A stretch of 64,000 nt of DNA from a phage, in sequence record PZ496580.1; one strand, given 5' to 3'. A model generated the notes under the pieces. It had not been told where the DNA came from, did no database searches, and saw only the letters and a list, made by a program, of their open reading frames with translations. The first letter of the stretch is position 1; each line of letters opens with the position of its first letter. A program made the position numbers and the translations under genes. Shown piece by piece: positions 471 through 61,808 of this stretch.

Positions 471-2522
471 TTACATTTTAAATTTATCTGGCATTGCGTC
501 TACAGATACCAGATCAGCGATAAGCTGACGTAGAGTTGCCTTATCTGCTTTCTTACGTTCGGTTTTAGCTTCGGTAATGAAGCTGGAGAAAGAAAGGTCA
601 GAAGCAGGTTTAACAACACCTTCACGGATGAATGCATCACCGTCCGCGATCATCTCGCCAGATTCTTGTAATGCTGCCAGTTCATTTTTGTTCATAATAT
701 GTGCCTCAATGTAATAAGTTTCTTGTGAATCCGTTGATGCCGTAGCACGAGTTACCGTATCAAAGGATAACACAACACCGCGAGGAAGTAAAATCTCGCA
801 TTCTTTGTAAGCAAATGCCTTGTTACCTACTGGCAATACAGGGATGTTTTCCGCGCCAGCGATAGAGAAAGCAACATTAGCGCCACCTTCACCGCGAGAT
901 CCCGCCATAGAATCAACACCAGCAACGGCACTAGCCACGTTTGCATTCCACCCACCAAAAATATTAGGTGCAAGGGAAGTGCTCACATAGTTTTTAAAGT
1001 AAAACGCTTTTTGCTTACGTGCAGTTTCCCACATTTGAGACCGGAAGTCCATACCACGATACAGAATAGTACCAGGATCAAGTTTAACGCCATAGTTAGA
1101 GAAGGCATTATCCAGTGCATCACACATCTTGACCAATTCTTCTGGGTCTGCGATGCCATCAAACTCTTCCAGCTTACGATCGGTTAGGAAGTTGTTCATA
1201 TTGATGTATGCTGCATCGGCATATTCGCTCAACACAAAACCTTCCGCGCCAGGCAGGTCAAGATCAATATCTGCCATCATTTCACCCATGTTGCTAGCAA
1301 TTGCTTCAAACATACCGGAAGCAACATTACGCAGGGCATCGGTTTTAATCTGCGTGATGTGACTACGAAGCATTTCAGCTTTTACATCTGCTGGCATAGA
1401 CTGGTCTACTCGATCCATTGCTAAGGCAGTGATCTTGTTTTCGAATACTTCCTCGTTCATGATTTCTTTTAAGCGTTTGATTGATGCTGCGATAACTTCC
1501 GCAGACAACGGATCATATTGATCCTGAACTTTTACCAGTTCGCTTACTGCGTATTTTGCATCGGCCTCGCTTTCAAAAATAGTACGCATGAAACCATAGC
1601 GAGTGATAATATCACTTGTCCAATCATTCAGAGAACGCGCGGTTGAACGTTCTAAGGCTTGACGGTCAATCAGAGTATTAAACTGTTTCTTAGGTTCGGC
1701 TTCGGTGATATCTTCTTCCGGTTTAAGATTAATTTTTTCTGGATGATTCACATAGTCGCTGTTATAGGTCGCTTGAGTTTTCAGCATTTCTTCTTTAGTC
1801 AAACGAGATTTAGCCGCTACGCGTTGTTCTGCTTCCGCGTTTCGTTCTTCTTCTGACACAAGACTAGCCGCATACGCTTCATCTTTAGTCAGAGATTCGC
1901 CAGTAGCCTTAGATACCCAGCGATCACCTAAATCACTTTCTACTTTAGTGAACAAGGATTCATCAAGTTTAATCCCTTTAATCTTATCAATCGCCATCCC
2001 GCGACGTTTGACAACAACTAAAGCGATCTTTTTGCTGGTCATTACTTCCTGCTGGAATACTTCAAACTTCGGTGTACGACGCACCAAACGCTCTATAACG
2101 CGCTTAACCAGTTCGGTCTTACCTTTCATGCGGGATACGTTAAAACGGAACATAACAGCGTCTAATTGCGCTTTACGGGCTGTTTCCATAACCACATCAA
2201 AAGCACTTGCCATAACTGCAATCGGGTTATCGCCTAGACCATTTTTAAGCTGTACAATACGACCGCTTTTGTTCATTTCGCACAGTACAACATGTGCGGT
2301 CTTGTCACCCATACGAATGATTTTAGGTGTTTTGTTGGTGAAGTTACAAAGACGGACAATCACATCTTTATCGCGTGTCTGTACTGCAAAAAGCTGTTTA
2401 GGATTCTGCTTAGGCTTTAAGCACTGTACCGGGGCAATACTGCCAAAGTTTTCTTCCTCTTCTGTCAACAGCCATTTCTCGAAAGATTCAATCATTAGAT
2501 CGTCGATTTCTAAGTTAAACAT
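471..2522 (-). CDS. alt: Alt-like ADP-ribosyltransferase (virion-packaged RNAP-modifying enzyme)
   Basis: 683 aa (T4 Alt ~682 aa); C-terminal region has R (LYRGM), STS (YVSTSL) and ExE (KECEI) ART signature; sits after gene 30 as in T4. Confidence 0.7.
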   Translation of the reverse strand: MFNLEIDDLMIESFEKWLLTEEEENFGSIAPVQCLKPKQNPKQLFAVQTRDKDVIVRLCNFTNKTPKIIRMGDKTAHVVLCEMNKSGRIVQLKNGLGDNPIAVMASAFDVVMETARKAQLDAVMFRFNVSRMKGKTELVKRVIERLVRRTPKFEVFQQEVMTSKKIALVVVKRRGMAIDKIKGIKLDESLFTKVESDLGDRWVSKATGESLTKDEAYAASLVSEEERNAEAEQRVAAKSRLTKEEMLKTQATYNSDYVNHPEKINLKPEEDITEAEPKKQFNTLIDRQALERSTARSLNDWTSDIITRYGFMRTIFESEADAKYAVSELVKVQDQYDPLSAEVIAASIKRLKEIMNEEVFENKITALAMDRVDQSMPADVKAEMLRSHITQIKTDALRNVASGMFEAIASNMGEMMADIDLDLPGAEGFVLSEYADAAYINMNNFLTDRKLEEFDGIADPEELVKMCDALDNAFSNYGVKLDPGTILYRGMDFRSQMWETARKQKAFYFKNYVSTSLAPNIFGGWNANVASAVAGVDSMAGSRGEGGANVAFSIAGAENIPVLPVGNKAFAYKECEILLPRGVVLSFDTVTRATASTDSQETYYIEAHIMNKNELAALQESGEMIADGDAFIREGVVKPASDLSFSSFITEAKTERKKADKATLRQLIADLVSVDAMPDKFKM

Positions 2523-2563
2523 TTTATATCCTCTAGTTGATAACCTATAAACCTATATTTATG

Positions 2564-2588
2564 AAAAAGGGGCTTAACGCCCCTTTTA
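2564..2588. terminator. bidirectional hairpin terminator
   Basis: approx; AAAAGGGGC-loop-GCCCCTTTT with A-tract on one side and T-tract on the other. Confidence 0.45.
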
Positions 2589-2801
2589 TTATAATGCACC
2601 ATCAAGCAATTGCTCTAAGGTGTATCCTGAATAGTCTTTTTCAATCAGGATATATTTTCCTACTCGTTTAATCCAACCGCGCATTTCAACGTATTCTGCG
2701 TAGTTGATGGTACGAGTTGTTCCATCTTCCAGTAATGCAGTACCGATTTCGTTGATGCGGTCATAAGTTACGTCGGTAATGATGATTTCGATGTTAGCCA
2801 T
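2589..2801 (-). CDS. hypothetical small protein (70 aa)
   Basis: track ORF 2589..2852 trimmed to internal ATG (MANIEII...) because the upstream part overlaps the promoter -10; TAAGGAG SD. Confidence 0.5.
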   Translation of the reverse strand: MANIEIIITDVTYDRINEIGTALLEDGTTRTINYAEYVEMRGWIKRVGKYILIEKDYSGYTLEQLLDGAL

Positions 2802-2837
2802 TTGATACTCCTTAGTAGTTCGTTTCGGTATGTGTGC

Positions 2838-2866
2838 ATTATAGGGGATCACCGATCCCCTGTCAA
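2838..2866 (-). promoter_or_regulatory. sigma70-type early promoter cassette (PeSL-like)
   Basis: approx; TTGACA-17-TATAAT with palindromic spacer GGGGATCGGTGATCCCC, then conserved leader and SD. Confidence 0.6.
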
Positions 2867-2874
2867 CAACTTTT

Positions 2875-3393
2875 TTAGTTATTTTTTAATTGCTCATCTT
2901 GCAATAGGGCAATCACATGCTGGCGATGTTCTTCCGATTGAGGCACACCGAAAAAGTTTGTTTTGTAGAAATACTCTAATCGGTCTTCTCGTGTGCTCTC
3001 TTCCATCATGATCGCTGGTAGACCAAGATTGCGGAAACGTCGCTTTTCTGCTGGCGTAAAATCGCTGTAATACAGCATAGAATCATCATTACCAGCAATG
3101 CTAAACTCATCCTTCATGAAGGAGAATATTGCGTTTAAACGCTGTTTACCGTCCACGATTTCGATCTCATAGCGAGAGCCATCATCAATCTTAGCCATTG
3201 CGATAGCGCCTACCGGAAAATCATTAATCAGGTTTTCGATAAACATACGTTTGTTTTCTGTGTCCCATACCAAAGGACGCTGATAATCTGGGTTCATGTT
3301 GATATAGCCATCTTCTAACCATGCTTCGTAAACAGAGATGACAAAGTTTTTAGTATTGGTATAGTAACGGCGTTTAGGCGTTAAACGGTTCAT
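2875..3393 (-). CDS. DUF262 / ParB-Srx-like nuclease-NTPase domain protein
   Basis: 172 aa; DYQRPLVW ... DGKQRL motifs match the DUF262 N-terminal signature; ATGA overlap with upstream small ORF. Confidence 0.5.
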   Translation of the reverse strand: MNRLTPKRRYYTNTKNFVISVYEAWLEDGYINMNPDYQRPLVWDTENKRMFIENLINDFPVGAIAMAKIDDGSRYEIEIVDGKQRLNAIFSFMKDEFSIAGNDDSMLYYSDFTPAEKRRFRNLGLPAIMMEESTREDRLEYFYKTNFFGVPQSEEHRQHVIALLQDEQLKNN

Positions 3394-5176: not shown

Positions 5177-5190
5177 CACTTTTTATAAAA

Positions 5191-5358
5191 TTATTTGTTA
5201 ATTTCCGGTGCGTTGCTCGGATAGTAACCTTCTTTAACTCCGAGGTATTTCGCAACCATCCCTACAATCTTCTGTGCTACTACAATGTCAAATTTCAGAT
5301 AATCTTCGCCGTGGGTTTCAATGATATATGCTTCACATGCTGCTTTAGTCTCGAACAT
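5191..5358 (-). CDS. hypothetical small protein (55 aa), copy 1 of duplicated gene
   Basis: MFETKAACEAYI...YYPSNAPEINK; about 90 percent nt identity to second copy at 8945..9112; follows conserved leader and SD. Confidence 0.45.
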   Translation of the reverse strand: MFETKAACEAYIIETHGEDYLKFDIVVAQKIVGMVAKYLGVKEGYYPSNAPEINK

Positions 5359-5391
5359 TTTGATTCTCCTATTTCGTTTCGGTATGTGTGT

Positions 5392-5420
5392 ATTATAGGG
5401 GATCTCCCGATCCCCGTCAA
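5392..5420 (-). promoter_or_regulatory. sigma70-type early promoter cassette
   Basis: approx; TTGACG-17-TATAAT. Confidence 0.5.
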
Positions 5421-5434
5421 CAACTTTTTTAAAA

Positions 5435-8941: not shown

Positions 8942-8944
8942 CTA

Positions 8945-9112
8945 TTATTTGTTAATTTCTGGTGCGTTGCTCGGATAGTAACCTTCTTTAACACCCAGAT
9001 ATTTTGCAACCATTCCGGTGATCTTCTGTGCTACTACGATATCGAATTTCAGGTAGTCTTCACCGTGGTTTGCTACAATGTATGCTTCGCATTCTGCTTT
9101 AGTCTGGAACAT
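8945..9112 (-). CDS. hypothetical small protein (55 aa), copy 2 of duplicated gene
   Basis: MFQTKAECEAYIVANHGEDYLKFDIVVAQK...; near-identical to 5191..5358. Confidence 0.45.
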   Translation of the reverse strand: MFQTKAECEAYIVANHGEDYLKFDIVVAQKITGMVAKYLGVKEGYYPSNAPEINK

Positions 9113-9147
9113 TTTTTGATTCTCCTATATCTCGTTGGTATGTGTGC

Positions 9148-9176
9148 ATTATAGGGGATCACCGATCCCCTGTCAA
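9148..9176 (-). promoter_or_regulatory. sigma70-type early promoter cassette
   Basis: approx; TTGACA-17-TATAAT, spacer GGGGATCGGTGATCCCC identical to cassette at 2838..2866. Confidence 0.6.
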
Positions 9177-9181
9177 CAACT

Positions 9182-9475
9182 TTATAATGCTTTATATGCG
9201 TATTTCATAAATTTGTCTGCCACTTCATTGGCATGTTCAGCTTCTACGCCTGATTCGAGAACAATAGCTAGGTCGGTTTCGTCATTCCCGCCGTACCAAT
9301 GATTTGATGTTCGATTTTTTTCAATTGGAAATTGGTCACTTTTATCTGTGCGACAAAATACATCTAAATGCTCGTCGATGTAAAAGATCCAATCTTCATA
9401 AAGAATAACGGTATTAGCCAGATTTTTATTGCCTTCAACGAAAGGTTCGGCTACAAACAAATTAGTATGTTCCAT
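9182..9475 (-). CDS. paralog family member E (divergent)
   Basis: trimmed to MEHTNLF start with GAGGAA SD; motifs IFYIDEHLDV, SNHW, AIVLESG. Confidence 0.4.
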   Translation of the reverse strand: MEHTNLFVAEPFVEGNKNLANTVILYEDWIFYIDEHLDVFCRTDKSDQFPIEKNRTSNHWYGGNDETDLAIVLESGVEAEHANEVADKFMKYAYKAL

Positions 9476-35310: not shown

Positions 35311-35340
35311 AAGCCGATCCATGTGGTCGGCTTTATTTTT
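35311..35340 (+). terminator. intrinsic terminator after gene 35
   Basis: approx; AAGCCGA-loop-TCGGCTT followed by TTTATTTTT. Confidence 0.6.
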
Positions 35341-35461: not shown

Positions 35462-35469
35462 TATAAATA
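35462..35469 (+). promoter_or_regulatory. T4-type late promoter
   Basis: exact TATAAATA ~34 nt upstream of gp36 ATG. Confidence 0.7.
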
Positions 35470-35502: not shown

Positions 35503-36993
35503 ATGGCAGATTTGAAACATGGATCTACTGTAGGCGGATCTCCCATTTGGACGCAAGGAAACTTGACGATCCAGCCAGCGGGAGATCAGCTTTTCTACAA
35601 AGGTCATAAAATCTATACCGCTTTTGATAGACCTTCGGCTACCGATTTTGATGCTGTTAGTGCATCCGAAGGTGGCACATTTCAAAAGCAAGTTCATTTC
35701 GAGGAAGGTTTAAGCGTAGGTAGCGCATCGGCTGGAGAAACCAAAAAGAATGGTATCTTTAAAGGCCAGAGTGATGCTGCTAATTTTGACGGCGTAAGCT
35801 GGGGTTTGCATTCATGGAAGTCAATCGGCTTTGTTAATGCCCGTGATGGCGTTATCATGGCGTATATTGACACCACAACGGGCGAATTTAAGTCTAAAGG
35901 GACTATCGAAGGGACAACCATTAAAGACACAGGTCAACGCGTCTACAGCCCTGTTAATAAACCGACGAATAATGATTTGGATTTGGTTTCCCGTCGCGGT
36001 GATACTCTCACAGGAACATATAATTTAAACACTGTCACTGTTAAACTATCGGTTGATTCGAAATTAATTGCAAGGGAACGTGATTTAATTAATTTTGATG
36101 CGACTAAGATCTATTATGGTAACGTTCTTGATACGTTGGTCTTCCGAAGTAAAGATGAGCCTACCATTTTTGTTAATGGCAAAGAAGGTCGTTTTTATCA
36201 CACCAACAATAAACCAACTAAAGCCGATGTTGGACTAGGCAATGTCACCAATGATGCACAGGTTAAACGTGCTGGTGATATTATGGAAGGTAACTTGCAA
36301 GCGCCTAGAATGTTGGCGACAAACGATCCTGCTGGTCCTAATGAATTGGTTCGTTTGAGCTACTTTGAGAAAAAATCAATGGTAGCAAATCCAACCATCA
36401 TTGGAAACGTTGATTGGAACACTCTTATTAATCGCGGTATCTATCGTGTGGAAAATGCTGGGTCAGGTACTAACAAACCGTCTGATAGCTATTATAACGG
36501 CGTTTTGATGGTATATCGCCCAGAAGATGCGGTCGGTACTCGTCGAATTGTTCAGGTTTATTATCCTGAATCTATTGACCATCCGATGTGCTGGCGTTCT
36601 TGTTCTAATGAATCATGGACTGCATGGAACTATGTAGATCACCGTAAATTAGCCGATATTCGCTATGTTAACGTAACTGGCGATACCATGACAGGACAGT
36701 TAACTGTTCCGGCTGCAAATGGCGTTAAAACGGCTAGAGGTGCATATAATGGTGATAACTACTATGCTGGGTTAAATAGTGCTGATGGCACGGCTATGAT
36801 TCACCGTATCAGCGATATTAAAGCCACCGAAAAATTGGGTATTACGCACGATTCTAAAGCTGTTTTCATTAAAGCGCGTGGAAATACTCAAGACACAGAC
36901 CGCTATGAACTTTACCACGAAGGCCATAAACCGACACCCGCAGAGGTTGGCGCGGTTCCACTTAATGCGGTGATTGATTTTGGTACTTTCTAA
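35503..36993 (+). CDS. 36: long tail fibre distal connector (enlarged)
   Basis: 496 aa; N-terminus MADLKHGSTVGGSPIW matches T4 gp36 (MADLKVGSTTGGSVIW) but protein is >2x longer. Confidence 0.8.
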   Translation: MADLKHGSTVGGSPIWTQGNLTIQPAGDQLFYKGHKIYTAFDRPSATDFDAVSASEGGTFQKQVHFEEGLSVGSASAGETKKNGIFKGQSDAANFDGVSWGLHSWKSIGFVNARDGVIMAYIDTTTGEFKSKGTIEGTTIKDTGQRVYSPVNKPTNNDLDLVSRRGDTLTGTYNLNTVTVKLSVDSKLIARERDLINFDATKIYYGNVLDTLVFRSKDEPTIFVNGKEGRFYHTNNKPTKADVGLGNVTNDAQVKRAGDIMEGNLQAPRMLATNDPAGPNELVRLSYFEKKSMVANPTIIGNVDWNTLINRGIYRVENAGSGTNKPSDSYYNGVLMVYRPEDAVGTRRIVQVYYPESIDHPMCWRSCSNESWTAWNYVDHRKLADIRYVNVTGDTMTGQLTVPAANGVKTARGAYNGDNYYAGLNSADGTAMIHRISDIKATEKLGITHDSKAVFIKARGNTQDTDRYELYHEGHKPTPAEVGAVPLNAVIDFGTF

Positions 36994-37063: not shown

Positions 37064-39976
37064 ATGGCAGATTTAAGCAGAATCCAATTTAAACGCACTA
37101 GCACTAAAGGTCGTCGACCTGATGCTGGTACGATGAATCCGGGGGAATTGGCAATCAACCTTGCGGATCAATATCTTCTTACTAAAAATGATTCCGGTGC
37201 TATTATCAATTTAAGTTGTCCTCCGGTTTATGACCGCGATGTTACAATGGCTGGTAAAGTTAAAGGTAATAATTATATCTTAAGTAAAACCGCTAACTAT
37301 TTGGAAGACCAGACAGCGAGAGACCTTAACTACTTTGGTGCTTTCCGTACCAATGGTCTTGATGGCTTTCTCGAACTCACGCTAAACGTTCCTCATTCTT
37401 CTGGTGTTCAGCATGGTCGAGGATTTACTTTCCAGTATGGACACACTGGATCACGAGTAGAAACCTATGGCTATAATAGAGAAGGTCAAAAAGCATTTAG
37501 CTATAAAATGTATCACGAAGGTGATAAACCAACTCCTGGAGAATTGAACGTTTACAGCAAACAAGAAGTTGACCGTATGTTTGTTAAAAACGTTAAACTT
37601 GCTACAGTTCCTGTTGATACCGTTGAAGGCTATTTTAAATTAGCAACTGCAATGATTCCACAAAACGGTCGTAGCGTATTTTTCCGTATTCATGGCGGCA
37701 ACGGATATAATGTTACTGCATACGATCAAGTTGATATTGTAGAAATTGTTATTCGCAGTGGAAATAATCGCCCTAAAAGTGTTAACGTTATTGCATATCG
37801 CCGAAATACAAACAAATCATTTGATGTTTTGGCTGTTAATACTTCTGGTGATAACTATGATATCTATGTGAAATATCAGCGTTACACTGATAACGTTATT
37901 GTTGAATTTGGTAAAAGTGTTGATGTTAATCTGGTAGTTCATGACGTTCCAGACTTTGTTGCTGACCGTCCTGCTGGCGATAATGTTATTGGCGGTCGCG
38001 CGGTAACTCTTTTCAACACCGAAAACAAACGCGGTGTATTGAGTTTTGACGATAACACACAAAATAGTTATGATATTGTTCACTTGAGTAATGATAAAGG
38101 TACTGGACGAAAATATATTCGTAAATTCCGTAGCAACTATAACGAAATGATCTGGCATGAGACTGTTCAAGGTAATACATATCGATTGGCAACCGGAACG
38201 ACTGATGCATCGGAAGTTTTTAGAATTACTAGTCGCACCATGTTTACTGGTAAAGGTGTATTTGATGCCGGACAAAACGTTCTTAGATTAGAGCGTCCTA
38301 GTAACCAATCAAACTATATTGAATGGCAAGATCGCCGAAATGGTGCTGATGCTCGTCAAGGTTGGATCGGTTTTGGTAGTGCTGAAACAAATAACTTCCA
38401 ATGGTATAGCGATCACGGAAAAAACTCATTCCAGTTGGATGCTAATGGTCAATGCTCTATTACTACTGGTGCGACCAAAATTGTATATACCAACGGACAA
38501 TATTATTCCGCTAACTCTGATGCATATCGTATGATCTATGGCAATTACGGTGCATTCTGGCGCAATGACGGGACTAAAGTTTATCTTCTTTCCACCAAAG
38601 AAAATGACCGTTTTGGTGGATGGAACGGCAACCGACCATTCATTTACGATTTGACGACTGGTAAAGTTACTTTAGGTGGTGACGGTAACGAAGGTGCATT
38701 AGTTCTTGAAAGAGATAGCCGTGCGGCTAGATTTGCTGGCGACATTTACGTTGGCAAAGGGATGTTAACATTTGATGCCGGACGATTAAATTCTCGTGAT
38801 TACTTCCGGTTTAACCATTGGGGCGATAGCAATAACGCGCGTGATAACATCCTACAGCTTGACGATAGCAAAGGTGCACACTTCACCACTGAACGTACTT
38901 TAGCAACTGGTGCGATTAAAACTAAATTCTTCGGTGATTTGGAATCTGCTGGTCAGATTAAATGGGGTAAAGGGACCGCCACATCTACGTTTACTATACG
39001 TGTTTGGGGTGCTGATGCTCGTAAACAAATATTTGAATGCGGCGATGAAAGCGGGTGGCATTGGTATACACAGCGTGCTGGTGGACCGGGAACTCCCGCA
39101 ATTGATTTTAGTATTAACGGTACTGTAAGGCCGCAAACTATGGATTGTGGCGGTAATATCACCCTTCGTGGTGCTGATATTGAATTTAAACGAAGCGGTA
39201 ACAAGCATTTATGGTTTAGAGATCCAAACGGATTAGAATTGGGTTTGATTTATTGTGATGATGCTGGTGTTATTCGTGTCCGTGGTGAGAAGTCGACCGA
39301 AGTATGGAAATTCTCGGCAAAACAGATTCATTTAGAAACGGGTACTGCCGGAAATGGTGTAGGCTTGCTTCGTGGTGCTGTAGGTGGTGGCGCATGGACT
39401 CAATGGAGAGATCGTGGTACTGGTTTGCAGGTTGACTGTCAGCAATCAGAAAACTCAGCACACAACATATGGCGAGCGACTCATCAAGGCAAATACCATC
39501 TTGCAGCAATGGGTGTTCATGCATCCGGTGGTAGTGTTGCTAATACCGTTGTTAGATTACATGTCCATGACTCAAACTATGATTTCACTGCGGTTGGTGA
39601 CTTCACCGCAGGTCGTAACGGTTCGTTTAACGATGTGTACATTCGTTCTGATGCTCGCCTTAAAATCAACAAGGAAGAGTATAAGGAGAATGCCACCGAT
39701 AAAGTTAATCGCTTGACGGTATATACCTATGACAAGGTTAAATCTTTAACCGACCGTACTGTCATTGCTCATGAAGTTGGTATTATTGCTCAGGATCTTG
39801 AGAAAGAATTGCCAGAAGCAGTAACAACCTCGAAGATCGGCGACGGTGATACACCAGAAGAGATCTTAACAATTTCTAACTCTGCTGTCAACGCTCTTTT
39901 AATTAAGGCGTTTCAGGAAATGAGCGAAGAATTGAAAGCCGTTAAAGCTGAACTAGCGGAACTTAAAAAGAATTAA
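37064..39976 (+). CDS. 37: long tail fibre distal subunit with C-terminal intramolecular chaperone domain
   Basis: 970 aa; N-terminus MADLSRIQFKRTSTKGRRP..GELAINL matches T4 gp37; C-terminal ~110 aa has SDARLK...GIIAQDL...coiled coil typical of S74-type auto-cleaving chaperone. Confidence 0.85.
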   Translation: MADLSRIQFKRTSTKGRRPDAGTMNPGELAINLADQYLLTKNDSGAIINLSCPPVYDRDVTMAGKVKGNNYILSKTANYLEDQTARDLNYFGAFRTNGLDGFLELTLNVPHSSGVQHGRGFTFQYGHTGSRVETYGYNREGQKAFSYKMYHEGDKPTPGELNVYSKQEVDRMFVKNVKLATVPVDTVEGYFKLATAMIPQNGRSVFFRIHGGNGYNVTAYDQVDIVEIVIRSGNNRPKSVNVIAYRRNTNKSFDVLAVNTSGDNYDIYVKYQRYTDNVIVEFGKSVDVNLVVHDVPDFVADRPAGDNVIGGRAVTLFNTENKRGVLSFDDNTQNSYDIVHLSNDKGTGRKYIRKFRSNYNEMIWHETVQGNTYRLATGTTDASEVFRITSRTMFTGKGVFDAGQNVLRLERPSNQSNYIEWQDRRNGADARQGWIGFGSAETNNFQWYSDHGKNSFQLDANGQCSITTGATKIVYTNGQYYSANSDAYRMIYGNYGAFWRNDGTKVYLLSTKENDRFGGWNGNRPFIYDLTTGKVTLGGDGNEGALVLERDSRAARFAGDIYVGKGMLTFDAGRLNSRDYFRFNHWGDSNNARDNILQLDDSKGAHFTTERTLATGAIKTKFFGDLESAGQIKWGKGTATSTFTIRVWGADARKQIFECGDESGWHWYTQRAGGPGTPAIDFSINGTVRPQTMDCGGNITLRGADIEFKRSGNKHLWFRDPNGLELGLIYCDDAGVIRVRGEKSTEVWKFSAKQIHLETGTAGNGVGLLRGAVGGGAWTQWRDRGTGLQVDCQQSENSAHNIWRATHQGKYHLAAMGVHASGGSVANTVVRLHVHDSNYDFTAVGDFTAGRNGSFNDVYIRSDARLKINKEEYKENATDKVNRLTVYTYDKVKSLTDRTVIAHEVGIIAQDLEKELPEAVTTSKIGDGDTPEEILTISNSAVNALLIKAFQEMSEELKAVKAELAELKKN

Positions 39977-40018: not shown

Positions 40019-40258
40019 ATGGTCTATAATATCGTCATTGGTGCTTTGTCTAGTTTCGGAATGAAACTATTGTCAAAGTTAATTAGTGAAAAGATGCTCA
40101 CTAAAATTTTCTTCTATTGCGCTCGTCGTCTTGCGGCTTATACCAATACGCCAATTGATGATCGTTTTGTGGAAGAACTTTATAAGGAGTTTAATAAAGA
40201 TCAGTCAGAAGATAGTAACGAGCAAGATAAACCTAGTGATAGTCAACTACCTAAATAA
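40019..40258 (+). CDS. hypothetical small membrane-associated protein
   Basis: 79 aa; hydrophobic N-terminus; AAGGAGA SD; occupies the slot where gp38 would be expected but is unrelated in size. Confidence 0.45.
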   Translation: MVYNIVIGALSSFGMKLLSKLISEKMLTKIFFYCARRLAAYTNTPIDDRFVEELYKEFNKDQSEDSNEQDKPSDSQLPK

Positions 40259-40291: not shown

Positions 40292-40948
40292 ATGCAAGTT
40301 TCTGAAAAAGAGAAAGACTTTGCTATCTCAAATGTCCTGCGCGCTATTTTCACAACTAAAAGCACGGAGTTGCTCGTACTTCGTGTTTTTGCTGCCGTCG
40401 TGTTGTCCATATTAGCATTTGTCGTTTATAGTAAAAACGAGTTATTTGCGCTTTATAAAGAGACTCGTTATGAGACTTATGCTCACGTTCTCCAGGTAGA
40501 GAAAGACCGCAATTTTGATAATGCAGCACAGGAGCAGTTACAGATAGTTCATGTGTCGGCTGATGCCGATTTTTCTGCTGTTTTTAGTTTTCGTCCGAAA
40601 AACCTAAACTATTTTGTTGATTTGGTGGCATATGAAGGAAAGCTACCGCATACGATCGATGAAAAGAATTTAGGCGGATTCCCTATCAATAAAACGAGTG
40701 AAGAATATCGTAGGCATCTTTTAGGTAAATCCTATTTTACTGATAAAGATTTCCAGTATATTCCATCGAGGGAGAAAAAATTAGAGAATATCGATATAGG
40801 ATTCATGTATTCTTGTCCTATATTCAATCTCGATAATGTCTATTCTGGTAGTATCGCCATTGCATGGAAGAATAAACCGGATATTGACATTGAGAATTTA
40901 GATACTCTTTGCAATCAATCTGCCAGAATCCTCGGAAGGATTAGATAA
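40292..40948 (+). CDS. t: holin
   Basis: 218 aa; collinear with T4 holin T (LEQLQIVH.S.EADFSAVYSFRPKNLNYFVD..AYEGKLP...ARILGR). Confidence 0.9.
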   Translation: MQVSEKEKDFAISNVLRAIFTTKSTELLVLRVFAAVVLSILAFVVYSKNELFALYKETRYETYAHVLQVEKDRNFDNAAQEQLQIVHVSADADFSAVFSFRPKNLNYFVDLVAYEGKLPHTIDEKNLGGFPINKTSEEYRRHLLGKSYFTDKDFQYIPSREKKLENIDIGFMYSCPIFNLDNVYSGSIAIAWKNKPDIDIENLDTLCNQSARILGRIR

Positions 40949-40951
40949 CTT

Positions 40952-40988
40952 AAAGGGGAAGCCTTTCGGCCTCCCCTTCTTTTTTATT
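40952..40988. terminator. bidirectional intrinsic terminator between t and convergent minus-strand genes
   Basis: approx; GGGGAAGCC-TTTC-GGCCTCCCC followed by TTCTTTTTTATT. Confidence 0.6.
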
Positions 40989-45176: not shown

Positions 45177-45449
45177 TCACCAGTCAAGAGCGCGTGTCTC
45201 TGCGTCTTCCCATGCTTGATCCATAACAGCCTTAAAAACATATTCTAAGGTATCATCTTTCGAGAATCCGAAGACCTTAGACGGAATATCTTCAATTGCT
45301 ACTCCAGCAACTTCCGCATTACGAGCCTGACAATAATGCAACTCTAAGTTATCGAGATAGCGACCGCCTAATTTCTCCATATCATCCCAACATTTCCAGT
45401 AACCTACTTTATCGGCAATTGCTAACACTTTGCTGTTTTCGTTGCTCAT
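45177..45449 (-). CDS. hypothetical protein
   Basis: track ORF trimmed to MSNENSKVL below the promoter. Confidence 0.4.
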   Translation of the reverse strand: MSNENSKVLAIADKVGYWKCWDDMEKLGGRYLDNLELHYCQARNAEVAGVAIEDIPSKVFGFSKDDTLEYVFKAVMDQAWEDAETRALDW

Positions 45450-45480
45450 CTTTGATTCTCCTTTCGTTTGGTGTGGGAGT

Positions 45481-45510
45481 ATGTTACTACTCCCATTATT
45501 CAGTGTCAAT
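45481..45510 (-). promoter_or_regulatory. sigma70-type early promoter cassette
   Basis: approx; TTGACA-18-TAACAT. Confidence 0.35.
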
Positions 45511-45515
45511 AGATT

Positions 45516-45722
45516 TTATTCGATTATTTCAAATTTTGCTACCGGATCACCGTTTCGTTTGGTTGCGGTAAGTTGTTGTTTGTCAAAGTAAAACCAAATA
45601 TAGTCACCATGAACTACATCAAATGTGTTTCCGTTATTGTTCGTGAATACATCAACATCATAATCACACCCGACACTAAAGCTATAATTGATGTGATCGG
45701 TTTCAATGCAACGTACTTTCAT
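45516..45722 (-). CDS. hypothetical protein, MK..C small-protein family
   Basis: trimmed to MKVRCIETDHI. Confidence 0.4.
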   Translation of the reverse strand: MKVRCIETDHINYSFSVGCDYDVDVFTNNNGNTFDVVHGDYIWFYFDKQQLTATKRNGDPVAKFEIIE

Positions 45723-45753
45723 TTTTGAATCTCCTTTTTGTTTCACTGTGTGT

Positions 45754-45782
45754 ATTATGCGGTGCTGGATTATGGAAGTCAA
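45754..45782 (-). promoter_or_regulatory. sigma70-type early promoter cassette
   Basis: approx; TTGACT-17-CATAAT. Confidence 0.4.
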
Positions 45783-45792
45783 CAACTTTTTA

Positions 45793-45823
45793 AAATAAAA
45801 AAGCCGACCACAAGGATCGGCTT
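45793..45823 (-). terminator. intrinsic terminator
   Basis: approx; AAGCCGA-loop-TCGGCTT followed by TTTTTTATTTT on minus strand. Confidence 0.5.
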
Positions 45824-45832
45824 AATAATCAG

Positions 45833-46228
45833 TTACTTACTAAATTTCTTTTTGGCTTCGTCTACTGCATGAGATGCCAGTACCGCCGCCGCATGTGCAT
45901 TTTTATCTGTGTTGCAGAGAACACCCAGATAAACATCACGCCAAAGTTTAATCATCTCGTAGATCATATCAATATCATTTTCTTGTTTGTTGGCGATGCT
46001 ATTCGTCGTTATCTGGTAAGGTAACGGCTTGATCTGTACTGGTTCCGCCATCGGGCTAATAGGTTTCGGATCGGTCATAATAGGTGCTGTTGTCGGTGAT
46101 GTTTTCCATACGTCATTATTCCACGGTTTAACGGTTGTACCGTATATTTTATAAGGATTTTTGTCTGGATCAACCATCCATGTATGATGAATACCTAAAC
46201 CATTTGAAGTAATGCGTCGCTCAGTCAT
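45833..46228 (-). CDS. hypothetical protein (131 aa)
   Basis: ORF track. Confidence 0.45.
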   Translation of the reverse strand: MTERRITSNGLGIHHTWMVDPDKNPYKIYGTTVKPWNNDVWKTSPTTAPIMTDPKPISPMAEPVQIKPLPYQITTNSIANKQENDIDMIYEMIKLWRDVYLGVLCNTDKNAHAAAVLASHAVDEAKKKFSK

Positions 46229-61113: not shown

Positions 61114-61268
61114 TTAAGCGCCACCGACAACAGAATGAGAACTACACCAACATACATTGTGATCTCGGATAACTTTTCTGTTTTTGTTTTGTGTCCAGAT
61201 AATCCGAAAACAACAACACCGATAATAGCGGACAGCAAGCCAACGATAAACATGATGATACTAAGCAC
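61110..61268 (-). CDS. hypothetical two-TM peptide (52 aa, GTG start)
   Basis: AGGAGA SD 6 nt before GTG; stop overlaps next ATG (ATGA); below cutoff. Confidence 0.3.
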   Translation of the reverse strand: MLSIIMFIVGLLSAIIGVVVFGLSGHKTKTEKLSEITMYVGVVLILLSVALK

Positions 61269-61437
61269 CGTCTTTCTCCTTTTTGCGTTTTTCTTTACCC
61301 GCTACACTAGGTCCACGATTGGTAATAGATCCGCTCGTTTCACCTGCTGCGATCTTCTCAGGATTGCCGCCAGCATCGCCAGCGGTCATATCTTCTTTGA
61401 GTTTATTTTCTTCAACAAACTGTTTAAAGCCAATCAT
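61261..61437 (-). CDS. hypothetical small protein (58 aa)
   Basis: ATG overlaps stop of 61434..61808 (ATGA); Gly/Lys-rich tail. Confidence 0.35.
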   Translation of the reverse strand: MIGFKQFVEENKLKEDMTAGDAGGNPEKIAAGETSGSITNRGPSVAGKEKRKKEKDGA

Positions 61438-61808
61438 AGAATAATCTCTTTCAGTAAGTCAACAATCTGGTCTTTCGTCAGTTTATCCTGATTCTCTACA
61501 ATCTTGATAACACAAGCGTTAACATCTTTTCGAGTCACGCGGGAGATCGTTTTAATACGGTTAAACGGTTCGTAGAAATACACTGCTTCATTATAGAGAG
61601 CGGATACTTTACGACGCATTTGATCTTTATCTGACAAGAAAACAAGTGCTGTTTTATGATCTACACCCGCCACGTTATATAGTTCAGCAACACCCCAGCG
61701 ACCTTCCGGTTCAATCATTCCGGCGTGTTTACCGTCGATAAAAATAAGAATATCTCCGTTGAATGCGGTTTTGAATGCTACATCTTCCGGCGTAATCATA
61801 TTTTTCAT
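61434..61808 (-). CDS. hypothetical protein (124 aa)
   Basis: ORF track. Confidence 0.45.
   Translation of the reverse strand: MKNMITPEDVAFKTAFNGDILIFIDGKHAGMIEPEGRWGVAELYNVAGVDHKTALVFLSDKDQMRRKVSALYNEAVYFYEPFNRIKTISRVTRKDVNACVIKIVENQDKLTKDQIVDLLKEIIL

Follow-up and report, generated by a model that had tools for sequence, protein, structure and literature searches.

In T4, the chaperone gp38 and gp57A fold gp37, which bears its own receptor-binding needle. In the phage DNA analyzed here, a stretch of 64,000 nucleotides from sequence record PZ496580.1 (the window), g38 is not found directly 3' of g37, and a 79-aa ORF (ORF79) comes after 42 nt. This arrangement raises the question of how the distal fibre matures and which part of it recognizes the host. 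The analysis indicates that the locus very probably encodes the distal long tail fibre of an RB49-like Krischvirus on the T2/T6/S16 plan, with a gp37 precursor, autocleavage of an intramolecular chaperone (IMC), a gp38 cap, and a relocated g38. The IMC on T2- and RB49-type gp37, its cleavage, the capping by gp38, and the displacement of g38 in RB49 are already published.

The window was identified as Krischvirus DNA (RB49-like T4-type coliphage) and was colinear with RB49 from approximately 112 kb through the end of that record to 14.15 kb. No database genome was identical to the window, and the best reached approximately 97%. Gene 36, encoding the long tail fibre distal hinge connector (496 aa; 35503..36993, + strand), was assigned by phrog_16472, phrog_1425, a weak Pfam Phage_T4_gp36 match, and the RB49 annotation. 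Gene 37 (37064..39976, + strand) encodes the 970-aa precursor of the long tail fibre distal subunit (phrog_1699, E 4e-183). As the initial annotation had reported, ORF calls and a Phage_holin_T match placed ORF79 (40019..40258, + strand; phrog_402), a homologue of RB49ORF251w/dc5, after gene 37, followed by holin t (218 aa; 40292..40948, + strand; Pfam Phage_holin_T, E 4.9e-61). The order g34-g35-g36-g37-ORF79-t was common to the window, RB49, and Sf20.

The C-terminus of gp37 was characterized by profile, structure, and sequence searches. The last 109 of the 970 residues, at the extreme C-terminus of the subunit, constitute a Peptidase_S74 IMC (residues 862-970; 39647..39973, + strand, or 39647-39976 with the stop codon), supported by Pfam, invariant residues, fold, and phmmer. 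The Peptidase_S74 profile (PF13884) matched residues 862-921 over positions 1-58 of 58 (E 1.4e-11; 45 bits versus a cut-off of 22). The Ser-Lys spacing in SDARLK fits S-x4-K at the domain start, with Ser862 (39647-39649) as the predicted nucleophile and Lys867 (39662-39664) as the predicted general base, and S862, D863, L866, and K867 were invariant among 21 and among 29 aligned homologues with identity down to 37%. The AlphaFold2 monomer model of residues 781-970 had a pLDDT of 81 (88-94 in the IMC part) and contained a long terminal helix (residues 939-969), which fits the coiled-coil previously proposed for this end. The 11 best PDB matches to the model in Foldseek were all IMC structures (7dc3, 3gw6, and 3gud), with 7dc3 at the top (E 3.4e-5, probability 1.0). 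In phmmer searches against PDB, full-length gp37 matched only gp34 and Mu-fibre shaft domains, and the C-terminal fragment as query reached S16 gp37 and MyRF; the best match was S16 gp37 in the gp37-gp38 tip complex (6f45_A, E 8.5e-5). Among Krischviruses, IMC identity was 94-100% (RB49, 96%). The profile search, the invariant dyad, and the fold matches confirm the S74-type chaperone starting at SDARLK that had been read from the sequence. Fibre maturation also differs from that of T4, as had been suggested, because gp37 bears an S74-type IMC with a Ser/Lys dyad.

The region around the predicted cleavage site was then compared with characterized fibres. Autoproteolytic release has been reported for S16 gp37 (PMC7917993), and the window sequence DVYIR^SD.RLK is the fPS-phage motif that was aligned to the mapped S16 site DLNVS^SDRRIKK (PMC7917993). 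Motif identity and conservation mark the codons D857-V-Y-I-R861 (39632..39646, + strand) as a terminal beta-strand at the end of the predicted mature gp37, where it is proposed to make up the tip on which gp38 docks. DVYIR was kept in all seven Krischvirus gp37 sequences compared, and phmmer detected no similarity to the S16 tip in the part of the gp37 tip upstream of DVYIR. T2 and T6 gp37 are cut, after which gp38 caps the tip (PMC3157838), and Efimov et al. (2022) asserted the same order for RB49 gp37, a self-cleaving chaperone and then a gp38 cap (PMC9569957). For the present phage, we infer actual cleavage and gp38 capping or take them from this literature. In the proposed mechanism, the 109-residue S74 IMC of the 970-residue precursor would drive trimerization and folding of the beta-structured tip that precedes it, and would then free itself by cutting between Arg861 and Ser862, a step that depends on the Ser862/Lys867 dyad. 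On the exposed trimeric end, ...NDVYIR, one gp38 would dock through its tryptophan-bearing N-terminal domain and bind the receptor, which in RB49-like phages is OmpA or O-antigen, through its glycine-rich C-terminal domain.

A tblastn search of the whole 64-kb window with RB49 gp38 returned nothing at E<=10. The initial claim that there is no gp38 gene held only for this locus and for the window and was not confirmed as a statement about the phage. RB49 gene 38 (45367..46143) encodes a T2-type adhesin (Pfam GP38, E 7e-72; Gp38_N, E 6e-18), and gp57A is present in RB49 at 61.2 kb, both positions being outside the RB49 span covered by the window. The displacement of RB49 g38 has been described (PMC3157838). 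In Sf20, gp38 is gp220, approximately 56 kb from g37, and at least 22 of the 30 best Krischvirus matches had one gp38 approximately 55 kb from g37. Exactly one gp38 was present in all close relatives checked, either distal (RB49, Sf20, 011D4, and others) or adjoining (FL04); g38 adjoins g37 in Krischvirus FL04 and in the metagenomic locus L016. Every close relative checked thus shows what the initial annotation had named as refuting its reading, a homologue of gp38 at another place in the genome, and the suggestion that this fibre works without any gp38 is not supported. The absence of g38 from the window can be explained because the gene would have moved approximately 55 kb away in RB49-type Krischviruses, to a place among small genes near rI/tk. 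This phage's own gp38 gene is not visible because its expected position is approximately 31 kb past the right edge of the window, and by analogy with its relatives, we infer that the phage itself has g38 outside the window. The fibre locus or the 64-kb window alone is misleading, giving a "no adhesin" picture.

An IMC and a T2-type gp38 are not alternatives, and they co-occur in T2, T6, and S16. By tblastn, 1111 phage records had an IMC-type C-terminus and approximately 790 had gp38, so the design of gp37-IMC plus gp38 is common. The RB49 host-range mutations E230K and Y231S map to gp38 (PMC9569957), and receptor use in Krischvirus is set by gp38 (PMC12032242). Because a displaced g38, a self-cleaving gp37, and host-range mutations in gp38 have all been published for RB49, the residues before Ser862 are most likely a gp38 docking surface and not a receptor-binding tip. 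The receptor-binding tip that had been placed just upstream of residue 862 is not supported, given those mutations and DVYIR, a conserved gp38-docking motif. When RB49-type Krischviruses are annotated or their host range is predicted, the distal gp38 gene, and not the end of g37, is the place to look for the receptor-binding protein.

The remainder of gp37 was compared among Krischviruses, whose g37 sequences showed 86-92% nucleotide identity to that of the window. A Gp34_trimer domain was found at residues 427-528. No match to PF12604 or PF20744 (gp37_C, the needle receptor-binding domain) was found in window gp37, and the same Pfam library found both in the Felixounavirus Alf5 fibre; NCBIfam gave no matches for gp37, ORF79, or gp38. 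These alignments show window gp37 to be a new mosaic, in which residues 291-480 were much closer to 011D4 (96% identity) than to RB49 (51%) and residues 781-861 closer to Sf20 (100%) than to RB49 (67%); the whole of residues 781-970 was 100% identical in Sf20. Residues 691-840 were variable (mean pairwise identity 0.51-0.57) and formed the most variable long gp37 stretch besides 391-450. Such variability would also be compatible with distal gp37 taking some direct part in recognizing the host. That gp37 residues ~690-861 bind a host receptor themselves, through loss of gp38 or as a second site beside it, is nevertheless improbable; if true, it would help explain the use of O-antigen and OmpA by RB49-like phages.

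Of the two forms that such binding could take, the first keeps the gp38 cap as in T2 and adds another binding site in gp37 ~690-840, such as one for O-antigen, which, if true, could explain the broad, multiple receptor use of RB49-like phages. The variability of residues 691-840 agrees with this form, as does the comment of Efimov et al. that recognition of several O-antigens and OmpA via a gp38 domain of ~180 aa is "counter-intuitive" (PMC9569957). However, the mutations extending RB49 to strain F17 lie only in gp38 (PMC9569957), Pfam detected no binding domain in ~690-840, and the variability may merely reflect the mosaic recombination of fibre segments described by Trojet (2011), which together leave a second site decidedly improbable. 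The other form, in which the phage has no gp38 and, once the IMC is released, the uncapped gp37 tip immediately before residue 862 itself binds the receptor, like that of pb1, the L-shaped fibre of T5, would suit the lack of a gp38 homologue in the window, the position of ORF79 42 nt after g37, the variable 691-840 stretch, and the existence of IMC fibres without a separate adhesin (e.g., T5-type tblastn matches), but it is extremely improbable in view of the single gp38 in all close relatives checked, the gp38 of Sf20 despite a tip and IMC identical to those of the window, the conserved docking motif DVYIR preceding the cut, and the RB49 host-range mutations in gp38 (PMC9569957).

The T2/T6/S16 plan was further compared with known systems. 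Window gp37 resembles the S16 and T2/T6 fibres (gp37 IMC plus gp38 cap, PDB 6F45) in its C-terminal IMC of ~110 aa with the SD.R.K motif and in the predicted cleavage directly before Ser, and its IMC is 66% identical to that of T6 and 42% to that of T2. The gp38 of the window's relatives, like that of S16, T2, and T6, has Gp38_N and GP38 domains and polyglycine motifs. Unlike in S16 and T2/T6, g38 of RB49-type Krischviruses lies approximately 55 kb from g37 on the opposite strand, and the window gp37 tip beyond its last 5 residues is unlike that of S16. The endosialidase K1F CIMCD, the GA-1 neck appendage IMC, and the MyRF ICA (MEROPS S74; 3GW6, 3GUD, and 7DC3) share the Pfam family, the Ser-Lys dyad, the predicted fold, and the C-terminal helix with the window IMC. 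However, the passenger in the window is a T-even distal fibre, compared with a tailspike or transcription factor in that group, the window IMC is shorter than the endoNF construct, and its identity to these domains is 10-19%. With T4 gp37/gp38/gp57A, the window phage shares homologous Gp34_trimer-like shaft domains, and gp57A is kept in RB49, whereas window gp37 has neither the gp37_C needle domain nor an IMC-less C-terminus. The gp38 of T4 is a chaperone missing from the virion, whereas Krischvirus-type gp38 is a structural adhesin.

ORF79 was identical (100%) in Sf20. Precomputed matches to Pfam PF26925 (Phage_PM2_Gpl) exist for all 15 homologues, whose identity to ORF79 is 59-94%, and a literature search for this accession found nothing. 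In size and in its helix-TxTxxDD motif pattern, ORF79 is similar to PM2 gp l (P18), but the identity in a direct alignment is 20%, and T4-like phages also have the PseT.3/PseT.2 spanins. In Vibrio phages, the ORF79 homologue comes after a lysozyme-like gene, and in Felixounavirus and Kolesnikvirus, homologues come after tail-fibre genes. ORF79 was always directly 5' of t, even where it comes after g38, as in FL04 and L016. Because ORF79 adjoins t even in relatives with g38 beside g37, it is not a substitute for g38. A role as g38 replacement or fibre chaperone, suggested by the homologues that come after tail-fibre genes, was rejected as the main reading on the grounds that FL04 and L016 have both genes, that the Alf5 fibre is without an S74 domain, and that the family is named for the PM2 lysis factor. 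The initial description of ORF79 as membrane-like is weakly supported, with a maximum Kyte-Doolittle hydropathy (19-residue window) of 1.45 versus 2.86 for the transmembrane segment of the holin, and with hydropathy merely borderline, an ordinary transmembrane holin or antiholin was rejected as well. On homology and gene context, ORF79 is probably a member of the PM2 gp l (P18) family of lysis factors and probably acts as a lysis accessory factor with holin t, its putative partner, and not as a fibre component. A P18-like putative lysis factor beside holin t in Krischviruses is a lead on lysis in well-used therapeutic phage groups, and this side observation may be more useful than the fibre finding.

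A T4-type late promoter motif, TATAAATA, was found as an exact match 5' of gene 36 (35462..35469, + strand), and no second TATAAATA was found between this motif and t. From its position, the motif probably starts a late unit comprising g36, g37, ORF79, and t. A terminator-like hairpin was present 3' of g35 (35311-35333). In the scan for sigma-70 promoters and terminators, counts were at chance level. The hairpin 3' of t, which was missed by the terminator scan rules and was folded on its own, is followed by a U-run (40953..40986, + strand; RNA fold -16.8 kcal/mol, z -2.5) and resembles an intrinsic terminator at the end of the late unit.

The stretch from gene 37 (g37, the distal subunit of the long tail fibre) to the holin gene t matched 86 phage records, nearly all of them from Krischvirus (RB49, Phi1, Sf20, 011D4, and others), at 84-93% identity, and the 24 kb to its right again matched Krischvirus at about 96-97%. 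In local megablast, the window was colinear with RB49 from about 112 kb via the record end to 14.15 kb; no deposited genome identical to the window was found. Gene 37 itself (37064..39976, plus strand) encodes 970 aa and was assigned to phrog_1699 (E 4e-183).

The last 109 residues of gp37, encoded on the plus strand at 39647-39976 from the Ser862 codon through the stop codon, are a genuine S74 intramolecular chaperone (IMC), as the initial annotation had proposed, and four lines of evidence place this far above chance. Residues 862-921 matched Pfam Peptidase_S74 ("Chaperone of endosialidase") from profile position 1 (E 1.4e-11, 45 bits; cut-off, 22 bits). Two alignments, with 21 and 29 homologues and identity down to 37%, showed S862, D863, L866, and K867 to be invariant, and S862 and K867 fit the S-x4-K dyad typical of this family. 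When residues 781-970 were modelled with AlphaFold2 (mean pLDDT 81; 88-94 within the IMC domain), the structure had beta-hairpins and a long terminal helix (residues 939-969). The best 11 Foldseek matches in the PDB were all IMC structures: the MyRF ICA domain (7dc3; E 3.4e-5, probability 1.0), an endosialidase (3gw6), and GA-1 (3gud).

By sequence, the gp37 C-terminal fragment matched 6f45 chain A best in the PDB; this is the gp37 part of the S16 gp37-gp38 tip complex, which points to a T2-type fibre, where the IMC and the adhesin gp38 coexist. Trojet et al. describe cleavage of T2 and T6 gp37 followed by capping with gp38, and a displaced g38 in RB49 (PMC3157838), and Efimov et al. ascribe to RB49 gp37 a self-cleaving chaperone and subsequent capping by gp38 (PMC9569957). 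This design is common: 1111 phage records have an IMC-type C-terminus and about 790 have gp38. In S16, gp37 first trimerises and then removes its own last 113 residues by cleavage between the two serines of DLNVS^SDRRIKK, and the motif aligned to this site in fPS phages is DVYIR^SDGRLKI (PMC7917993). Because the corresponding sequence of the window, NDVYIR^SDARLKI, aligns with these sites, cleavage is predicted at Arg861/Ser862, which would leave 861 residues in mature gp37 and release an IMC of 109 residues.

When seven Krischvirus gp37 proteins were compared, identity was 94-100% in the IMC, and the approximately 20 residues preceding the predicted cut were also conserved, so that the residues directly before 862 are most likely a conserved docking element for gp38 and not a hypervariable tip that binds the receptor. 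This conservation and the host-range-extending mutations of RB49 (E230K and Y231S), which lie in gp38 (PMC9569957), speak against the proposal of a receptor-binding tip just upstream of residue 862; Krischvirus gp38 variants decide the use of OmpA and other receptors (PMC12032242). In the same seven proteins, residues 391-450 and 691-840 were variable and mosaic, and the variability of 691-840 leaves room for a small possibility that this segment plays an auxiliary part in host recognition. The gp37 of the window (37064-39976) is a mosaic, residues 291-480 and 691-840 included, and its nearest relatives by segment were 011D4 (1-480, about 96%), Delraymugoa (481-780, 92%), and Sf20 (781-970, 100%); the IMC is nearly invariant.

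A tblastn search of the whole 64-kb window with RB49 gp38 gave no match at E<=10. In RB49, gene 38 (45367..46143, minus strand; Pfam GP38, E 7e-72; Gp38_N, E 6e-18), whose product contains polyglycine motifs, and gp57A (61192..61452 of the RB49 record) both lie beyond the genome part that the window covers. Shigella phage Sf20, in which gp37 residues 781-970 and the ORF following g37 (ORF79, 79 aa) are 100% identical to those of the window, encodes gp38 as Sf20_gp220, about 56 kb from g37. Of the 30 Krischvirus records that best matched the g37-t stretch, at least 22 were listed with one full-length gp38 when Sf20 gp38 was the tblastn query; the gene lay about 55 kb from g37 wherever g37 coordinates were available. 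Since RB49, Sf20, and these relatives carry gp38 elsewhere in their genomes, the idea that no gp38 acts on this fibre is not supported for the group as a whole. The gene is indeed missing from the g37 locus and the 64-kb window, but RB49-type relatives encode it about 55 kb away; likewise, fibre maturation differs from that of T4, but it most likely follows the known T2/S16 scheme, with gp38 relocated in RB49-type Krischviruses. The IMC on gp37, the maturation scheme, and the relocated gp38 were already known.

Each genome checked had one g38, at either of two positions, with ORF79 keeping with t. In FL04 (PP358550.1 54000-62500), the order was g37 (with IMC)-g38-ORF79-t, and no g38 was found at its distal locus; a metagenomic relative (L016) had the same order. 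Krischvirus fibre loci come in two arrangements. In the RB49 type, g38 lies about 55 kb off; in the FL04 type, g37 has a T6-like end, g38 adjoins ORF79 and t, and the distal site holds no g38. The window and FL04 become homologous again at the last g37 codons of the window, aligned just past the FL04 g38 stop (97.7% identity), which marks a sharp cassette boundary. Another metagenomic T4-like relative, L014 (ENA ERZ27235516 k99_9381), has a third distal-fibre design at this locus: a short fibre protein of 524 aa (1722-3296) with a Gp10_C domain occupies the g37 position without an S74 domain or adjacent gp38, followed by an ORF79 homologue and t.

As initially described, g37 is followed by ORF79 (40019..40258, plus strand; 42-nt spacer, AAGGAG ribosome-binding site) and t (40292..40948, plus strand; Pfam E 5e-61); ORF79 had been described as membrane-like, but the hydrophobicity at its N-terminus is borderline. 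ORF79 as a stand-in for g38 was rejected, as FL04 and L016 have both genes side by side. ORF79 was 95-100% conserved in Krischviruses, and in all T4-like relatives examined (FL04, L014, and L016) it stood directly upstream of t; homologues lay immediately 3' of a tail-fibre gene in Felixounavirus and Kolesnikvirus and of a lysozyme-like gene in Vibrio phages. All 15 database homologues carried Pfam PF26925 (Phage_PM2_Gpl), and through them ORF79 probably falls in the PM2 gp l (P18) family. Gp l (P18) of corticovirus PM2, described as needed for outer-membrane disruption at lysis (PMC9502842, citing Krupovic 2007), has 51 aa and shares a motif pattern with ORF79, but only 20% identity. From these sequence features, ORF79 is probably a lysis accessory gene, and it could represent an unstudied lysis component in T4-like phages that have spanins too.

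The T4-type late promoter motif TATAAATA occurs before g34 (30350) and before g36 (35462), and a hairpin with a U-run follows t (40953-40986). The motif before g36 and this hairpin suggest that g36-g37-ORF79-t form a single late unit. Directly before the g36 promoter, the 110-nt g35-g36 intergenic segment 35347-35456 was 92% identical, inverted, to the region upstream of RB49 gene 3 (L003 12775-12882). The two copies make up a repeated element, either a leader or one associated with a promoter, which may be of the PeSL type known from T4-like phages. Two segments of about 240 nt among small early ORFs (5190-5427 and 8944-9183) were about 86% identical to non-syntenic RB49 positions (L001 7406-7644 and 3080-3317), which indicates a putative duplicated small-gene or intergenic module in the hyperplastic region. 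At 496 aa, gp36 (35503-36993, plus strand) is more than twice the size of T4-type gp36 (about 220 aa; PMC3157838). Its first 50-77 or so residues matched the N-termini of the "distal subunit" fibre families phrog_5667, phrog_8378, and phrog_11011, which suggests, at the sequence level, that gp36 and gp37-type proteins have a common N-terminal joining module.
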